This document shows positions 14,117 to 19,829 of a DNA stretch of 64,000 nt, piece after piece. The stretch comes from an uncultured delta proteobacterium (GTDB taxonomy: Bacteria > Desulfobacterota > RBG-13-43-22): NCBI GenBank assembly GCA_963802945.1, contig CAWDKY010000032.1:77797-141796 (forward strand), written 5' to 3'. The notes beneath the pieces were generated by a model. The model had not been told where the DNA came from, made no database searches, and saw only the letters and a program-made list of their open reading frames with translations. The stretch's first letter is position 1. Each line of letters starts with the position of its first letter. The translations under genes were made by a program, and so were the position numbers.

Positions 14117-15370
14117 CTAGTCCTTCTCGGAGGTGGCTTTTTCATCACCGCTTTTTATTTCCACGGTATCCTTTCCCTTGATCACTCTTTTAAAACAATT
14201 GGAACAAAAATTATAAGTTTGGCGTACTGCCGGTACCTGACCAAGACCAACGCGCATTTTTAAGGGAACATAGCCGGCCAGGGTGGACCAAGGTTTATCA
14301 GGGAACAGGTACAAATTATAATAAGATCTTCTCTTCGCTTGCCAATTCTGGTTCCAGGCATAATCAGTCAGGAGATTGATTTCATCCACCTCGCCGGAAT
14401 GAAAGGCCCTTTCAAACATCTTTTCCAACAGCACGGCGCCTGGAGAGTAAGAGGAATAGGCTTCATCATAGCAAATCTTTAAAATGATCAAAGACCGATT
14501 TATTTGAAAGGCCAGGTGAGCAGCAATCGTTTTCCCTTCAGCTTCCAGGAAGTGCCACTCCAACCAGCCCAGGTCCGTCAGCCGACCGGTCAAGGCTTTA
14601 TAAAAAGACACCAAGGAATCGCCTTGACATAAAGCGCTGCCTTCGGTGTACTTCCAGCTGCAGGCCTCCACCGCCATGAAACGGGAAAGTTCTTGTTCGG
14701 TAAGGGAATCCCCTGTCAAAAAGGAAATTTTTGCCCCTGGAAGGGTAAACAATTTGCGTTCCAGGCGGCGTAAGTTTCGGACATATTTGGTTCCCAGGAG
14801 GGCCTTATATTCATCAAAAGATCGATCAACTTTAACAAAAGAGCCGTAACCGTCAAAAACAGACACCGCCTTAATTTTTCTTACTCCGTTATTCATGAGC
14901 TTTATGGTGGGAGAACTTTCAGGGAGGCGTCTCATCTCAAAACTAAAACAGGTCGGTTGCATACGGGTCAGTTGAGACAGAAGTAAGGGGATGATCTCTT
15001 GTTCGCCGCCCGATTTAACCAAGAAATCAACCGAAGCAGTCTGGTCGTTATAGGGGGTCCGGAATTTATGGCAAGGCATTCCTATTCGTTTAATAGGAGT
15101 GATTACTACCGGAAGCACACCCACCAGAGTTGAATGGTCATAAGCAAAAAGACAAAACCAACCCTCTCCGGGACTCAATTGATACTCCAGGTAAGAAGCG
15201 ATCCAGGCGTGGGATGGATCCGGCAATCGATGCGGGGCCTGGAAGGCCAGGTCATTCCAGGCAGTTGCATGGGGTTTAAGCCCTTCAAGGGTTCTCACCG
15301 TTTGAATTTGAAAACCATTGTGATTCTTAAAAATAGGTTCTCCTGAGGAATCTCTTTTTGGGGTGATCAT
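14117..15370 (-). CDS. GNAT-family acetyltransferase (CelD/BcsL-like)
   Basis: RNLRRLERKL, SWK, IAAHL, YDEAYSSYSPGAVLL motifs. Confidence 0.8.
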   Translation of the reverse strand: MITPKRDSSGEPIFKNHNGFQIQTVRTLEGLKPHATAWNDLAFQAPHRLPDPSHAWIASYLEYQLSPGEGWFCLFAYDHSTLVGVLPVVITPIKRIGMPCHKFRTPYNDQTASVDFLVKSGGEQEIIPLLLSQLTRMQPTCFSFEMRRLPESSPTIKLMNNGVRKIKAVSVFDGYGSFVKVDRSFDEYKALLGTKYVRNLRRLERKLFTLPGAKISFLTGDSLTEQELSRFMAVEACSWKYTEGSALCQGDSLVSFYKALTGRLTDLGWLEWHFLEAEGKTIAAHLAFQINRSLIILKICYDEAYSSYSPGAVLLEKMFERAFHSGEVDEINLLTDYAWNQNWQAKRRSYYNLYLFPDKPWSTLAGYVPLKMRVGLGQVPAVRQTYNFCSNCFKRVIKGKDTVEIKSGDEKATSEKD

Positions 15371-15466: not shown

Positions 15467-16639
15467 CTACTTACTGAGGAGGCTTCGATATACTTCTACA
15501 TTTTGTTTTGCAATCACATCCCAGCTAAATAATCTTGATGCCCTTTCATACAAGCGCCGGCCTATTTCTTCTCTCTGTTGTGAGTCACGGATAAGCCTAA
15601 GCATTTTTTCTGCCAAGTCGGCCGGGTCATTCTCTTTTACAAATATCCCATCTCCACCGATATACTCCGGCAGGCCAACCGATCGAGAGGCAATAACCGG
15701 CACAGCGTTAGCCATGGCCGTAGTTACTGTCGATCCGGCTTCACTGGTTGTATAGGGGATGACCAAGAATAAACTCTTTTGGTATTCCACCCACAATTCT
15801 TGCTCATTCGTAAAGACATAGTCAAACCATTTAACCTGATCAGTCAAACCCGATTGGGCAATGGGCTCAATTCCCTCTTCCTGACCGTATTCACGATTCA
15901 ACCCGTGGATAAGGACTTTTGGGCTAATCCCCTTTTCTTTTAAGATGACCAGGGCCTTTAAAAATAGATCGAAGCCCTTACCATGGGCCAAATGATGCCC
16001 GCCGCAAAAAATGATCTGATCTCGTGAATATGAAGTCAAATTCGGTAGGTGGGTCCCATGGGGGATGACATGAATCTTTTCAGCTTGAATACCCCAGGAT
16101 TCCAATTGTTTTTTCATGGGAAGCGTTTGAACAATAAGGGCATCAGCTTTATTATAGACCCGGTTTAATCGGACTGTAGTCAGCTTGAAATTCTTTAATT
16201 TAAATTGCTTCTGGATGGAATCGATTTCATGAATGGTGACCACCCGCTTAGACTCGGTCGGGAAAGTCAAAAAAGAAAGCAAGGGTAGAAAGCCGAAAGA
16301 GCCCTGGGTCTGCTGATAATTTAATATAGGCAGCTTCAGGTGTTTCAGGTACCGAGCCCCCTTGAAGACATCCCCCCCATATTCAGGCAGGAGTCGGGCC
16401 AGCCGTTTAATCCTGGACCCCGGTTTGGGGTAAAAATCGGCAAAATGCATTTGGGGAACAAGGGAGAAGGACAAATCGGGGTTAAACGGATCGTGACCAT
16501 AACACCGGCAGTTGGCCGACAGGATATGGACTTTCAGACCTGTTCGTTCAAGGGCCGAAGACAGCCTGTTGGCAAAGTTGCCGCAACTTTTCTCCTTATA
16601 CCAGCAAGCAATTATCCCAATTTCCTCCAAGTGATCCAT
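15467..16639 (-). CDS. Glycosyltransferase family 4
   Basis: VIPHG, KGFDLFLKA, AMANAVPVIAS, FSWDVIA. Confidence 0.85.
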   Translation of the reverse strand: MDHLEEIGIIACWYKEKSCGNFANRLSSALERTGLKVHILSANCRCYGHDPFNPDLSFSLVPQMHFADFYPKPGSRIKRLARLLPEYGGDVFKGARYLKHLKLPILNYQQTQGSFGFLPLLSFLTFPTESKRVVTIHEIDSIQKQFKLKNFKLTTVRLNRVYNKADALIVQTLPMKKQLESWGIQAEKIHVIPHGTHLPNLTSYSRDQIIFCGGHHLAHGKGFDLFLKALVILKEKGISPKVLIHGLNREYGQEEGIEPIAQSGLTDQVKWFDYVFTNEQELWVEYQKSLFLVIPYTTSEAGSTVTTAMANAVPVIASRSVGLPEYIGGDGIFVKENDPADLAEKMLRLIRDSQQREEIGRRLYERASRLFSWDVIAKQNVEVYRSLLSK

Positions 16640-17370
16640 TGAACCCCCTTCCTGATTAATGATTTAAGAAACCGCTTTCTTCCTTCGGTTAATTCCGGAT
16701 TTAGGATGAGTTGAAGTATTTGATCAGCGACCTCCTCGGGTCTTGCCGGAGAAATATTTTTTAAAAAATCTCTTGGAAAAAGGCTTAACATCTCCGTATC
16801 GACATATCCCGGGCAGAGGTAAGCAATTTTGATATTCGTAGCGGCCACCTCCTGTGACAAGGCTTCAGTCAAGCCAACCAGCCCGAATTTTGAGGCACAA
16901 TAAACGGCTAGATTAGGGAACCCTCCTTTCCCGGCCCCAGAGACCAAATTAATAATTTGCCCATAACCTTGCCTCAGCATGATCAACAATACTTCGCGCG
17001 AGCAAAGAAAAGCCCCTTTTAAATTGGTATCAATCATTTTATCCCAATCCGCGCTCGTTGTCGAGACCATTGGACCATAAACCAATACTCCTGCATTATT
17101 AATCAGAACATCTATCCGCCCATAGCGATCCACGACCTGAGCGATGAGGCTCTTCACTTCCTTCTCTTGTCGGACATCGGTAGGAATTGGAATACAAGAA
17201 CCACCCTTAGCCTTAATGAGGCCGCAAGCCTTTTCCAAGGCTTCCTTATTCCGTGCCGCCAGAATCACCTGTGCGCCTTTTTCAACCAAAATCAGAGAAG
17301 TTGCCAACCCGATTCCCTTGCTGGCGCCAGTCACAATAATCACTTTGTCTTGGACTAAACTTTTATTCAT
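16612..17370 (-). CDS. SDR-family oxidoreductase
   Basis: TGASKGIG, NNAG, YCASK. Confidence 0.95.
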   Translation of the reverse strand: MNKSLVQDKVIIVTGASKGIGLATSLILVEKGAQVILAARNKEALEKACGLIKAKGGSCIPIPTDVRQEKEVKSLIAQVVDRYGRIDVLINNAGVLVYGPMVSTTSADWDKMIDTNLKGAFLCSREVLLIMLRQGYGQIINLVSGAGKGGFPNLAVYCASKFGLVGLTEALSQEVAATNIKIAYLCPGYVDTEMLSLFPRDFLKNISPARPEEVADQILQLILNPELTEGRKRFLKSLIRKGVQWITWRKLG

Positions 17371-18373
17371 TGGCTAAGATGCTCATCATCCCAACAACTG
17401 CTCGAGCGGCCTTAACTAAAAACTTGGGGTTCAGCTTATCCAAGGTATCGTCCGCACTATGCATGTAGGGATTTCTGTAAAAGGAGGTAATGAACACCGC
17501 ATTATAGCCCTTCTCCCAGAAGGATAGTTCATCCCCTCAACCACACTGAGGGCCGATATTTTTTTTGATCCCAATGTCCCCCCCCTTCAAACGGGAATAA
17601 ATGTTCTCAACAAACGAGGTATTGGCCGGACGCCCGCCGACCAGTAAAATTTCATTAGGATTTTTAAATCCTGTTTGGACAAAATAAATCGGCTTTTTAA
17701 TCATCTGTTTGGCCAAGTAAAGCCCTTCTCTCAAAAAGCCTGTGCCTTGAGTTTCCCGCCACAAGGCCTTCAAAGAAGGTTGCGTGTATCCGATCGTATC
17801 GATGTTGATGACTCCTTTAATGGAACGACCCTTGGCCGCCAGTTCTTGGGCATAGGCTTGGCTGCCTTTGTGGCCCTGTTCTTCATTGGAAAAAAAGACC
17901 CACTCCACCGTGTTATTACCGGGATTCCCGGCTAAGAATCGAGCCCCTTCCAATAAAACCGCCACCCCTGTGCCGTTGTCGTCGGCCCCGGGGGCCGACC
18001 TGTGGGATTCCCAGCCGGCCGGGTGCGAATCGTAATGGGCGCAGACCACATAAACCGTTTCAGGATCTTTTTTCCCTGAAATGCGGGCCACAACATTTTT
18101 CCATATTTTGCCTTCTGCGGTATAAAAGGGGTAGTTTACATCCAAGGTTTTGTACGGTTTGAGTTTATGGTAAAGATAGTCGGCCACTTGATTCTGTTTT
18201 TCCCAGGTCGTTCGATTTCTAAAGGATTGCAGTTCCTCTAAAGTCTTGAAGATCGATCGTTCCGAGATCTCCATGGGTTCTCTTCCCGGCTGGCGGAAAA
18301 GGCTGGAAGCAACAGCTGGGCTTTGTTGAAAAAATACCCAGAGAAAAACAAGAAGCCATAATTTAATTTTCAT
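17363..18373 (-). CDS. Secreted M28-family metallopeptidase, 336 aa if the in-frame UGA at 17537-17539 is read as selenocysteine
   Basis: AHYDS, GADDNGTG, EEQG and NIDTIGY motifs; the frame stays open 57 codons after TGA, giving the M28 C-terminus (GDELSFWEKGY...NPYMHSADDT.DKL) and a TAA overlapping the SDR start. Confidence 0.85.
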
Positions 18374-18388
18374 TAAACCCGTCCTTTT

Positions 18389-19829
18389 TTAAAACCGATG
18401 GTCTTTCTTATCCTCTTTTTTATCCGGGTTAAGGCTCTTGACTTCTTTTTCAATTCGTTCTTTCTGCTGGGGATCTTTTTCAACATATTTCAAGGCGGTT
18501 TGGAAATGAAACAAGGCCTTCTTTCTATCTCCCTTCAAACCGAACGACTTTCCAAAATAATAATGGGCCTGTCCCAGATTGTTCAAATTTCCATAGACCA
18601 TACCCAGATAATAATAAAGATCCTCTCCCTCCGAACCGAGCTTCAAGGCCCTTTGAAAATTTTCCAGGGCCAATAGATTTTCCCCTTTTTCCTGGTAGGC
18701 TCGGCCTAGAAAAAAAGCGGTGCTGGCATCTCTTGGATCAAGAATGGAGGCCTGACCCAATTTTTGAATGGCCTTTTCCAGGTCTCCCTTCATAAAAAAG
18801 GCTTGACCTAAATCTCTCACCAGGTAGATCTCTTGCGGTCTTAGCAATAATGCCTTCTCAAATTGATCGACGGCATCGTCAAATTTCCCTTCACGGATAT
18901 CAATCCAGCCTTGGCCGTAATGGACCCAAAATAAAGTTTGGGTGTCCTTGGCCCAGGACTGAAAAAGATTTCTGGCCCTTTGTAAGTCACCATAGTTGGT
19001 CAGGATAATGGTTTGGACGCGTCGGAATTCATCGGAAGTCCCCCGCCAGGGACCCTGATTGGCATATTGTTGTATCAGGCTTTCAATATGGGACATGCGG
19101 TCCACGGTCAGGGGATGGGTCATCATATAGGCCGGGATCCCTTCTGAACCAAATGACCCCCAGCGGCGAAGGTTGTCGAACAGATCGATCATGCCCTTGG
19201 GATTGAATCCCGTCTTGGACATATATTTGAATCCAAAATTGTCTGCCTCGCTTTCGTCCTCTCGACTGTATTGCAGGAACAAGGTCTGGGCCGTGGCCAT
19301 AGAACCGGCCATGGTGGCCATCAGCTATGTTGGGATCTCCGGCCAAAATGCCGAGCAAAACCGCAGCCATGGTGGCCAGGCCGATCTTTTTTTGTTTTTC
19401 CATCTGTCTGGAAATGTGGTGGTGGGTGACATGGGTGATCTCGTGGCCGAGTAAACCGGCCAGTTCAGCTTCCGAGTTCATGATTTGAATAATGCCGGTG
19501 GTAACAAAGACATGTCCGCCCGGAACGGAAAAGGCATTCAATTGGGGATCCTTTAAGAGGTAAAAACGAAAAGGGTAGGGTTGTGGCCCGGCTTGTTTGA
19601 GAATCTCTTGGCCCAGTCTATTGAGATATTCCAGGAGCAAAGGATCATGGATCACGGAGAATTCCTTCTCCACTTCTCGGACTGCATCTTCTCCTAACTT
19701 TTGTTCCTCTGCGGTGGTCAGGGCGCAAATATTTCCTCCAGTTCCTGGCAACCAGAAATTGATTTGAAAAAATAGGAAAAATCCTATTAGCCCACTGATG
19801 ATCTTAATCAATTTGTTGCGCATGCTCAT
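18389..19829 (-). CDS. M48-family metalloprotease with TPR repeats (BepA-like), frameshift near 19325
   Basis: NAFSVPGG, HEITH, YSREDESEAD, THP and C-terminal TPRs. Confidence 0.88.

Follow-up and report, generated by a model that had tools for sequence, protein, structure and literature searches.

A stretch of 64,000 nucleotides from an uncultured delta proteobacterium (GTDB lineage Bacteria; Desulfobacterota; RBG-13-43-22; positions 77,797 to 141,796 of contig CAWDKY010000032.1 in the assembly GCA_963802945.1), referred to below as the window, carries on its minus strand a gene for a hydrolase of the M28 peptidase fold with an in-frame TGA. Sequence comparison indicates that this TGA, located at 17539..17537, is very probably a selenocysteine (Sec) codon in a real selenoprotein gene. 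A Sec codon in an M28 peptidase with a C-G-U motif had been put forward in a sequence-only reading of the window. The proposal is supported by the conservation of the TGA, by homologues with cysteine, by the geometry of a hairpin resembling a selenocysteine insertion sequence (SECIS) and by the presence of the Sec machinery. Database comparison also makes it highly probable that the gene belongs to a sizeable, systematically misannotated subfamily of M28-fold hydrolases with Sec, which is missing from the selenoprotein inventories covered. Among the representatives listed, clustering at 50% identity divides the Sec-type family into about 38 clusters, and clustering at 90% identity into 102.

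Conservation of the in-frame TGA and of the frame behind it

With translation table 11, the open reading frame (ORF) 18373..17537 on the minus strand encodes 278 amino acids and ends with ...NIGPQCG, followed by the TGA. Past the TGA the frame continues as GDELSFWEKGYNAVFITSFYRNPYMHSADDTLDKL...ANE-TAA. Read-through of the TGA gives 336 codons with the end ...SILANE and the stop codon TAA at 17365..17363 (minus strand). The TGA is codon 279, lies in the motif C-G-TGA-G-D-E and is the only in-frame TGA of the gene 18373..17363. The TAA of this gene overlaps the ATG of the next gene, which encodes a short-chain dehydrogenase/reductase (SDR) of 252 residues, by 8 nucleotides in the octamer ATGAATAA. 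The ORF call stopping at ...GPQCG-TGA with the frame running on to ...ANE-TAA, as described in the sequence-only reading, is present in the sequence, and the overlap of the extension with the next start, also noted there, was confirmed.

Orthologues of the gene were searched for in all six frames of 41 related genomes. They were found in the window's own genome and in five of the 13 other genomes of the same genus, the latter five being 62–91% identical. In all six orthologues (62–100% identity) the TGA occupies the same codon, and each orthologue has exactly one in-frame TGA, within the context GPQCG-TGA-GDE[LM]SFWEKGY. A sample of 401 genomes of the phylum contained a gene with E <= 1e-20 in the same six genomes only, all of the window's genus. 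A seventh match in this sample (genome G225) is an ordinary longer M28 protein without stops. No Sec-type gene outside the window's genus was found among the 401 genomes, which is not proof of absence. A second set of loci, designated clade B, was fetched as DNA from metagenomes with the database protein P0058 as the query. These loci are about 37% identical to the window protein; nine of them were returned, and eight include sequence past the match. The motif CG-TGA-GDE[GE]SFW is present in all eight. In seven of the eight the frame stays open for 58–59 codons past the TGA up to a stop, and the contig of the eighth ends six codons after the TGA.

The same pattern is visible in the protein databases. 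The best 120 of 156 homologues with E <= 1e-10 were inspected, and 102 of them end at, or one residue past, the cysteine aligned with Cys277: 96 end in CG, four in C-x (x = H, A, V, Q) and two in C. All of these cysteine-ending homologues stop at the same alignment column, although their identity goes down to about 30%. The remaining 18 of the best 120 comprise 15 generic M28 proteins of greater length, two fragments and one protein ending in DDNG. Because gene calling ends at a TGA, a conserved Sec codon shows up as a truncation in protein databases. An exhaustive HMMER search of 1.84 billion representatives was also evaluated. Its 150 best representatives at 50% identity include 29 that terminate in CG; a terminus at the Cys-x position together with a length below 330 residues was found for 38. 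The C-x-U motif occurs in variants with G, A, V, H, Q, P, T, I or Y as x. Two database proteins end one residue past the usual cysteine (P0076 with ...G-A-C, P0087 with ...G-V-C), which points to a further form of the motif, a C-U dipeptide, in addition to C-x-U.

It is vanishingly improbable that the TGA of the window reflects an error of sequencing or assembly. The adjacent gene, encoding an M48/TPR protein, does contain a 1-nucleotide insertion relative to its orthologue, and the assembly therefore holds at least one indel or pseudogene. Against an error at the TGA stands its recurrence in five other genomes and in eight metagenome contigs. Contigs of two independent public runs also cover the site, and among 40 of the 85 differences none lies at 17537–17539. 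The public sequencing runs listed for this DNA, with shares of at most 0.26, included no RNA run. The reality of the TGA, a check named in the sequence-only reading, is borne out by these two lines of evidence. The recurrence in orthologues, in clade B and in the databases rules out both a private nonsense mutation and an error of sequencing.

The extension behind the TGA comprises 57 codons and is ungapped in all five full-length orthologues. Pairwise differences within it are distributed over the three codon positions as 129/70/222 in the genus and 78/77/194 in clade B. Such a third-position bias is what purifying selection on a protein-coding frame leaves behind. It is extremely unlikely that the TGA is a genuine stop, which would leave a 278-residue protein without the last metal ligand and a downstream frame that is untranslated or decaying. 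A genuine stop would agree with the fact that all database gene callers ended the gene at the TGA, and a 44-codon ORF with a GTG start can be drawn within the extension. What argues against it is that the extension is open, ungapped and third-position-biased in two clades only about 37% identical to each other, and that it bears the conserved histidine ligand and the C-terminal helix of the fold. Furthermore, the homologues with cysteine run uninterrupted across the site, and the coupled overlap with the next gene arises only on read-through.

Probable decoding of the TGA as selenocysteine

The hairpin TCCTTCT-GGG-AGAAGGG with its loop 19 nucleotides past the TGA, which the sequence-only reading had pointed out, lies at 17524..17508 with the loop at 17517..17515. 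The bacterial SECIS consensus, in the covered part of a 2026 inventory review (PMC13188914), has an apical loop of 3–9 nucleotides, an upper stem of 4–16 base pairs and a spacing of 16–37 nucleotides between the UGA and the loop. The same part of the source describes a G in the first two loop positions, the loop pattern N1-G-[G|U]-N-N2 and a minimum free energy of at most -7.5 kcal/mol (PMC13188914). The hairpin was compared in 13 DNA sequences, six from the genus and seven from clade B. A hairpin of 6–8 base pairs with a G-rich loop is present in all 13; it begins 11–12 nucleotides past the UGA, and its loop lies 18–19 nucleotides past it. In the window the stem begins 12 nucleotides past the TGA, and 19 nucleotides separate the TGA from the GGG loop. 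All 13 sequences lie within the geometry given in the covered part of PMC13188914, and U-GGG-A fits the loop pattern; the match to bacterial SECIS geometry claimed in the sequence-only reading therefore extends to the whole set. The genus form of the hairpin is (G/A)UCCUUCU-GGG-AGAAGGG(C), the clade-B form is AUCCUUC-UGGGAY-GARGGAU, and the clade-B locus L119 has AUCUUUCU-GGGC-AGAAGGAU. Folds of 48 nucleotides have energies of -7.5 to -14.2 kcal/mol across the 13 sequences, with -8.2 kcal/mol for the window, and the isolated perfect stem reaches -8.9 kcal/mol in four orthologues. The fold of 76 nucleotides has z = -1.95.

The hairpin alone is not strong, and its significance comes from conservation. 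Its 3′ arm encodes Glu-Lys-Gly in the genus and Asp-Glu-Gly in clade B, and the pairing is retained through a one-base register shift. The single-base differences within the hairpin are compatible with wobble pairing (UCC/UCU opposite G, GAG/GAA opposite U). In codons 279–291, identical codons are used at seven of nine conserved degenerate positions, compared with 30 of 142 elsewhere in the gene. This suppression of synonymous change among five orthologues is significant (Fisher p = 0.0008). The element resembles the bacterial SECIS consensus (the bSECISearch model, with E. coli fdhF as the prototype) in being a coding-region stem-loop directly after the UGA with a loop that begins with G. It differs from the consensus in that it is very short and has no bulged U. 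The hairpin is not known to resemble that of fdhF in sequence.

Several observations weigh against the assignment of the hairpin as a SECIS element. The isolated perfect stem of the window has an energy of only -5.9 kcal/mol, above the limit of -7.5 kcal/mol. An equally good hairpin occurs at a permitted distance for 2–15% of codon positions in ten genes. No base-pair change compensated on both sides was found among the hairpin sequences. The 5′ arm encodes the conserved residues Ser-Phe-Trp, and part of its conservation is thus driven by the protein. RNAalifold, applied to an ungapped alignment of 12 sequences, chose another invariant hairpin, the pairing of GAGGGG with UCCUUC, without covariation. 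This alternative hairpin, at 17519–17538 of the window (minus strand), includes the GA of the UGA and competes with the SECIS stem for the 5′ arm. It is found at the same place in 11 other sequences. The glycine codon after the UGA is GGG in all 13 sequences, despite four synonymous codons. An Rfam scan of 17300–17700 gave only chance matches to snoRNA and miRNA families with E >= 0.85.

The window's genome encodes the complete machinery for Sec insertion. A tRNA-Sec was detected with 74.3 bits by Rfam and as SeC with the anticodon tca by ARAGORN. The winged-helix domain of SelB was matched with 80 bits and SelA with 535 bits. The selD gene (415477–416388 of contig C17 of the window's genome, locus L122) itself contains one in-frame TGA, in the motif G-U-A-S-K. 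The presence of selA, selB, selC and selD, another check named in the sequence-only reading, thus holds for all four genes. SelA is also encoded in all five other genomes that carry the Sec-M28 gene. The selD gene has a SECIS-like hairpin of its own, with the loop CGGGA 16 nucleotides past the UGA, which resembles the U-GGG-A of the M28 gene.

Homologues that carry another residue in place of the Sec are known from the exhaustive search. Full-length forms with C-G-C-G-D-E are found as six 50%-identity representatives among the 150 best (P0127, P0128, P0131, P0133, P0170 and P0209), and in all of them the motif reads C-G-C-G-D-E-G-S/R-F-W. With 38 Sec-type and six cysteine representatives, this M28-fold subfamily has Sec as its usual residue and cysteine only as an exception. 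An earlier word-based search with residues 262–336 among proteins of near lengths returned nine candidates and no matches. This null result reflects a limit of sensitivity and not absence, since the exhaustive HMMER search later found the full-length cysteine forms. In a quick maximum-likelihood tree, in which the intended outgroups P0150 and P0165 fell inside the family, the cysteine forms are scattered among the Sec forms, and well-supported branches force at least two changes. P0128, for example, lies inside a clade with 99% support together with P0148 and P0207.

That the TGA is read through but not as Sec, either by a near-cognate tRNA for tryptophan or cysteine or through a local change of the code, is very unlikely. 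This possibility draws on one full-length metagenomic protein of 330 residues, P0129, which has tryptophan at position 279 (C-G-W-G-D-E). Behind this tryptophan stands either a true TGG codon or a TGA for which the source pipeline applied a TGA=Trp code. TGA is otherwise a stop in the window's genome, which has the complete Sec machinery including a Sec-type SelD, and the SECIS-like hairpin is kept at the right distance. Moreover, six of the seven non-TGA homologues that retain Cys277 have cysteine at position 279, which is a signature of Sec sites.

Outside the subfamily the position looks different, which counts against the Sec reading. As a control, genome contigs were scanned with the pattern PGADDN[GA][ST]G, which yielded at least 80 loci from many phyla with 25–41% identity. 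Only ordinary M28 genes and no Sec-type loci were found among these loci. A C-terminal alignment was obtained for 54 of 80 loci, and 37 of these have a residue opposite U279. None of the 37 residues is cysteine (R 15, L 6, W 5, Y 4, A 3, F 2, S 1, G 1). At the position of C277, the ordinary M28 relatives have T, V, I, F, L, S or A, and again no cysteine. The 14 M28 loci of the window's own phylum gave the same picture, without cysteine. Both cysteines are also absent in the family representatives P0132, P0135 and P0228, which means that the Cys/Sec pair is not indispensable for the fold. In the LapA and Vibrio aminopeptidases, the cysteine of the CSDH motif aligns with U279 in HMMER alignments. 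The absence of cysteine in ordinary M28 proteins confines the Sec/Cys pair to this subfamily and to the comparison with aminopeptidases of the Vibrio/LapA type. The expectation of the sequence-only reading that UGA or cysteine would be aligned at this position was thus borne out within the family, and it does not extend to the ordinary M28 relatives.

Predicted fold and possible role of Sec279

Residues 93–203 of the protein match positions 1–104 of the 193 positions of the Pfam model Peptidase_M28 (PF04389) with 111.9 bits, compared with a cut-off of 21.3. An AlphaFold2 (AF2) model built from an alignment of 31 rows has a mean pLDDT of 86.9 and a pTM of 0.84. In this model the loop 274–281 with the C-G-U motif is placed between the strand 268–273 and the helix 282–286. 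The top Foldseek matches are LapA (6ZEP/6ZEQ) and the Vibrio aminopeptidase AAP (1AMP, 3B35 and others), with E of about 1e-18 and TM values of up to 0.78; SGAP is also among them. An insertion of about 70 residues (approximately 196–266, with the helices 201–207, 213–233 and 249–262) lies outside the Pfam model match. Residues His113, Asp115, Asp132, Asn163-Glu164-Glu165 and Asp192 are invariant in the family alignments. They were aligned to the Vibrio enzyme with its ligands His97, Asp117, Glu152 and Asp179 and the catalytic Glu151, and His305 of the extension corresponds to His256. The residue numbering of AAP is approximate and was derived in part from the titles of the D118N and S228A entries. 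The context of His305, NPYMHSADD, aligns with NPRIHTTQD of the Vibrio enzyme in HMMER. All five metal ligands and the catalytic glutamate are present, His305 only after read-through. The sequence-only reading had held that the extension supplies the last metal-ligand histidine of M28, and His305 does align with the last zinc-ligand histidine of solved aminopeptidases. In the clade-B locus L119 (2270–2449), in P0127 and in P0132, His305 is replaced by glutamate (NPYDES, NPYRES and NPYAET), and the metal site is thus not uniform across the family. By eye, the N-terminus resembles a signal peptide; several clade-B relatives have a lipobox-like end, L-x-G-C, in its place. The product of the gene is predicted to be an exported hydrolase of the M28 co-catalytic di-zinc aminopeptidase fold.

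The protein shares with AAP (PDB 1AMP; MEROPS M28) and with the fungal and Legionella LapA enzymes (6ZEP/7OEZ, 5GNE, 6ESL) the same predicted fold. The His-Asp-Glu-Asp-His ligands and the catalytic glutamate also correspond in the alignment, and those relatives are likewise secreted single-domain enzymes. It differs from them in having C-x-U-G-D-E instead of C-x-x-x-C-S-D-H, with the partner cysteine two residues away and not four, in carrying selenium in the place of sulfur and in the insertion of about 70 residues. The protein does not fall into the LapA equivalog NF045908 (68.4 bits compared with a cut-off of 600), and its loop reads C-G-U-G-D-E and not C-x-x-x-C-S-D-H. In HMMER alignments, C-G-U-G-D-E-L-S-F-W is placed opposite Y-G-C-S-D-H-A-S of Aspergillus LapA (i-Evalue 0.006) and opposite C-G-Y-A-C-S-D-H-V-N-W of Legionella LapB (5gne; i-Evalue 0.17).

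According to the covered part of PMC4012986, the disulfide C223–C227 of AAP fixes the loop that lies immediately above its dinuclear zinc site. In the same part of that paper, the counterpart of this loop is loop V of DapE, which lies over the dinuclear zinc site and positions the substrate, and in the DapE of H. influenzae the residue T325 is located directly above the zinc ions; the T325C variant is inactive (PMC4012986). The alignments to LapA, LapB and AAP suggest that Sec279 takes the place of Cys227 of AAP. From the shared x-S/G-D pattern we infer that Sec279 would also be the equivalent of Thr325 of DapE. The DapE loop G-G-T-S-D, as taken from mutagenesis primers, resembles C-G-U-G-D of the present protein. 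DapE differs in belonging to the M20 family, in being a dimer with a lid domain and in having threonine, and not cysteine or Sec, at this position. It counts against the placement of Sec279 over the metal site that it is based on fold matches and on sequence alignments, of which the one to A-C-S-D-H-A-S-W of AAP is weak, with an i-Evalue of 250.

Provided that codon 279 is indeed Sec, a role in a redox-active lid is the preferred, still tentative proposal, by analogy to the Vibrio enzyme. SelB and Sec-tRNA(Sec) would decode the TGA, helped by the small SECIS hairpin, and Sec279 would come to lie in the loop covering the two metal ions. A selenenylsulfide between Cys277 and Sec279 may tie this lid loop, replacing the rigidifying disulfide Cys223–Cys227 of the Vibrio enzyme. 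Even at the low potential of an anaerobe's envelope, such a Se-S lid could form and remain stable, and it could double as a redox switch. In the oxidised state the lid would be rigid and the enzyme active. In the reduced state the free selenolate would reach the zinc site and turn the enzyme off. A redox switch had been suggested in the sequence-only reading, and the idea gains a structural rationale from the aligned cysteine of the Vibrio enzyme, which belongs to the disulfide fixing the loop above the di-zinc site. Peptide model studies indicate a lower reduction potential for Se-S bonds than for disulfides. Because of this lower potential, the bond could survive in an anaerobe's envelope under conditions that a disulfide might not withstand, and this would explain the dominance of Sec in the family.

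A rather doubtful alternative is that Sec279 is a working part of the metal centre, as a ligand of one of the metals or of a third, thiophilic metal, possibly together with Cys277, or as a nucleophile that attacks the substrate. Chemistry other than plain peptide hydrolysis would follow from such a role. The excess of truncated representatives (38 compared with six with C-G-C) is more typical of a catalytic than of a structural residue. The SDH of ordinary M28 proteins is changed to GDE throughout the family, and the last histidine ligand is glutamate in L119, P0127 and P0132. According to the 2026 review (PMC13188914), Sec is a possible metal ligand in several recent families, and the aligned position in DapE is directly above the zinc ions in the covered part of PMC4012986. 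On the other hand, the five canonical ligands and the catalytic glutamate are kept, so the classical site looks complete without Sec. Cysteine at the DapE equivalent abolishes hydrolysis, as stated in the covered part of PMC4012986, and a free chalcogenolate there would be inhibitory for the classical reaction. In the closest solved relatives the aligned cysteine sits in a disulfide. A more specific form of the same idea, which must be regarded as unlikely, is that Sec279 and Cys277 act as ligand or nucleophile at a remodelled dinuclear centre. The protein would then be a Se-dependent metallohydrolase, or a non-hydrolytic enzyme, of a pathway with the GT4, SDR and Fem-like GNAT proteins encoded next to it, and the task of this pathway in anaerobes would be the assembly and trimming of an envelope glycoconjugate that is amino-acylated. 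If this were true, the M28/M20 clan would have its first selenoenzyme, and selenium a new use outside classical redox catalysis.

Gene neighbourhood and significance of the family

The features of the locus are summarized in Table 1. On the minus strand of the window, the gene order is M48/TPR protease, Sec-M28, SDR, GT4 glycosyltransferase and Acetyltransf_6 (Fem-like GNAT).

Table 1. Features of the Sec-M28 locus in the window, in window coordinates
Feature	Position	Strand	Basis
Complete predicted selenoprotein gene for an M28-fold di-zinc hydrolase, 336 codons + TAA, Sec at codon 279	17363..18373	-	ORF and read-through, Pfam PF04389, AF2, fold matches
Predicted signal peptide, approximately codons 1–23 (MKIK + hydrophobic core + AVA/SS)	18305..18373	-	by eye; model helix 2–16, low-confidence linker 17–32
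Cys277 codon TGT, probable partner of Sec279 in C-x-U	17543..17545	-	C277 at least 90% conserved in family alignments
Probable Sec-UGA codon U279	17537..17539	-	same codon in orthologues and clade B; Cys in some homologues
Putative bacterial SECIS upper stem-loop UCCUUCU-GGG-AGAAGGG	17508..17524; apical loop 17515–17517	-	geometry, synonymous suppression
57-codon C-terminal extension: GDE motif, helix 282–286, strand 292–297, His305 (17459–17461), C-terminal helix	17366..17536	-	alignment, AF2, codon-position bias
Predicted metal-site core: His113 (18035–18037), Asp132 (17978–17980), Glu164/Glu165 (17879–17884), Asp192 (17798–17800)	17798..18037	-	invariant columns
SDR gene, conserved downstream neighbour, start overlapping the selenoprotein stop	16612..17370	-	ORF, Pfam
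GT4 glycosyltransferase (conserved neighbour)	15467–16639	-	Pfam, NCBIfam
Acetyltransf_6 / Fem-like GNAT (conserved neighbour)	14117–15370	-	Pfam, NCBIfam

In each of the five orthologous loci, Sec-M28 is preceded by the M48 gene. Downstream of Sec-M28 come the SDR and GT4 genes in L012 and L014, and directly the GNAT gene in L015. The clade-B order is GT4, SDR, Sec-M28 and GNAT (L114, 540–5068, and L120). The GNAT gene lies directly downstream in all six clade-B loci that reach at least 1 kb past the gene (L114–L118 and L121), and L113, L119 and L120 end too early to show it. That this linkage is preserved between clades of about 37% identity, in a different gene order, is a lead to a possible common pathway. 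The NCBIfam matches of the neighbours are generic GT4, SDR and GNAT matches, all far below the cut-offs. The GNAT protein of clade B (515 residues) matches at its C-terminus the anticodon-binding domain of cysteinyl-tRNA ligase (PF23493, 27.5 bits), which hints at a tRNA-dependent aminoacyl transferase. With these neighbours, the Sec-M28 protein might serve less for the bulk digestion of peptides than for trimming a glycoconjugate of the envelope that carries amino acids. The M48 peptidase/TPR (BepA-like) gene at 18389–19829 (minus strand) is split into two overlapping ORFs of 248 and 310 residues. The split is due to the 1-nucleotide insertion, located near 19318, in comparison with the orthologue of genome G005, which is one frame of about 494 residues. 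It is either an assembly indel or a fresh pseudogene.

The sequence-only reading had not recognised M28 peptidases as an established selenoprotein family, and the inventories agree with this. Table 1 of the 2026 review (PMC13188914, May 2026), with 119 families and subfamilies, contains no M28, M20 or peptidase entry. The texts covered for novelty were this review, the BSepDB paper, the SelCysML paper and the Haft & Gwadz preprint. The terms "peptidase", "M28" and "aminopeptidase" have no occurrence in the main texts of PMC13188914, PMC13326102, PMC13745706 and the preprint, a scope outside which the supplementary family list of BSepDB lies. A search for literature on selenoproteins together with M28, peptidase or aminopeptidase returned unrelated papers only. 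None of the selenoprotein models of NCBIfam release 20 matches the protein. The closest parallels in the 2026 inventory are the UshA-like protein (NF041198, CxU) and the MerB-like SaoL (CU). Like the present protein, they have Sec near a cysteine, genes that are systematically truncated at the cysteine in the databases, an occurrence in anaerobes and a suspected metal-related role. They differ from it in belonging to unrelated folds and families, neither of them being a peptidase or an enzyme of the M28/M20 clan. Nearly all known bacterial selenoproteins are oxidoreductases or metal-handling proteins. UshA itself is a dinuclear metallophosphoesterase.

The public copies of the family that were examined are 57–59 residues short, lack a metal ligand and are misannotated. 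Structural and functional predictions made from these truncated deposited sequences are consequently wrong. In the predicted full-length proteins, Sec would occupy the place of the disulfide by which the active-site lid is locked in the best-studied relative. This raises the question of what advantage selenium offers outside redox catalysis, and a candidate answer is a cross-link or switch that works at the low envelope potentials of an anaerobe. The conserved link to the genes for the Fem-like GNAT, GT4 and SDR proteins provides a lead to the envelope pathway in which the enzyme may act.

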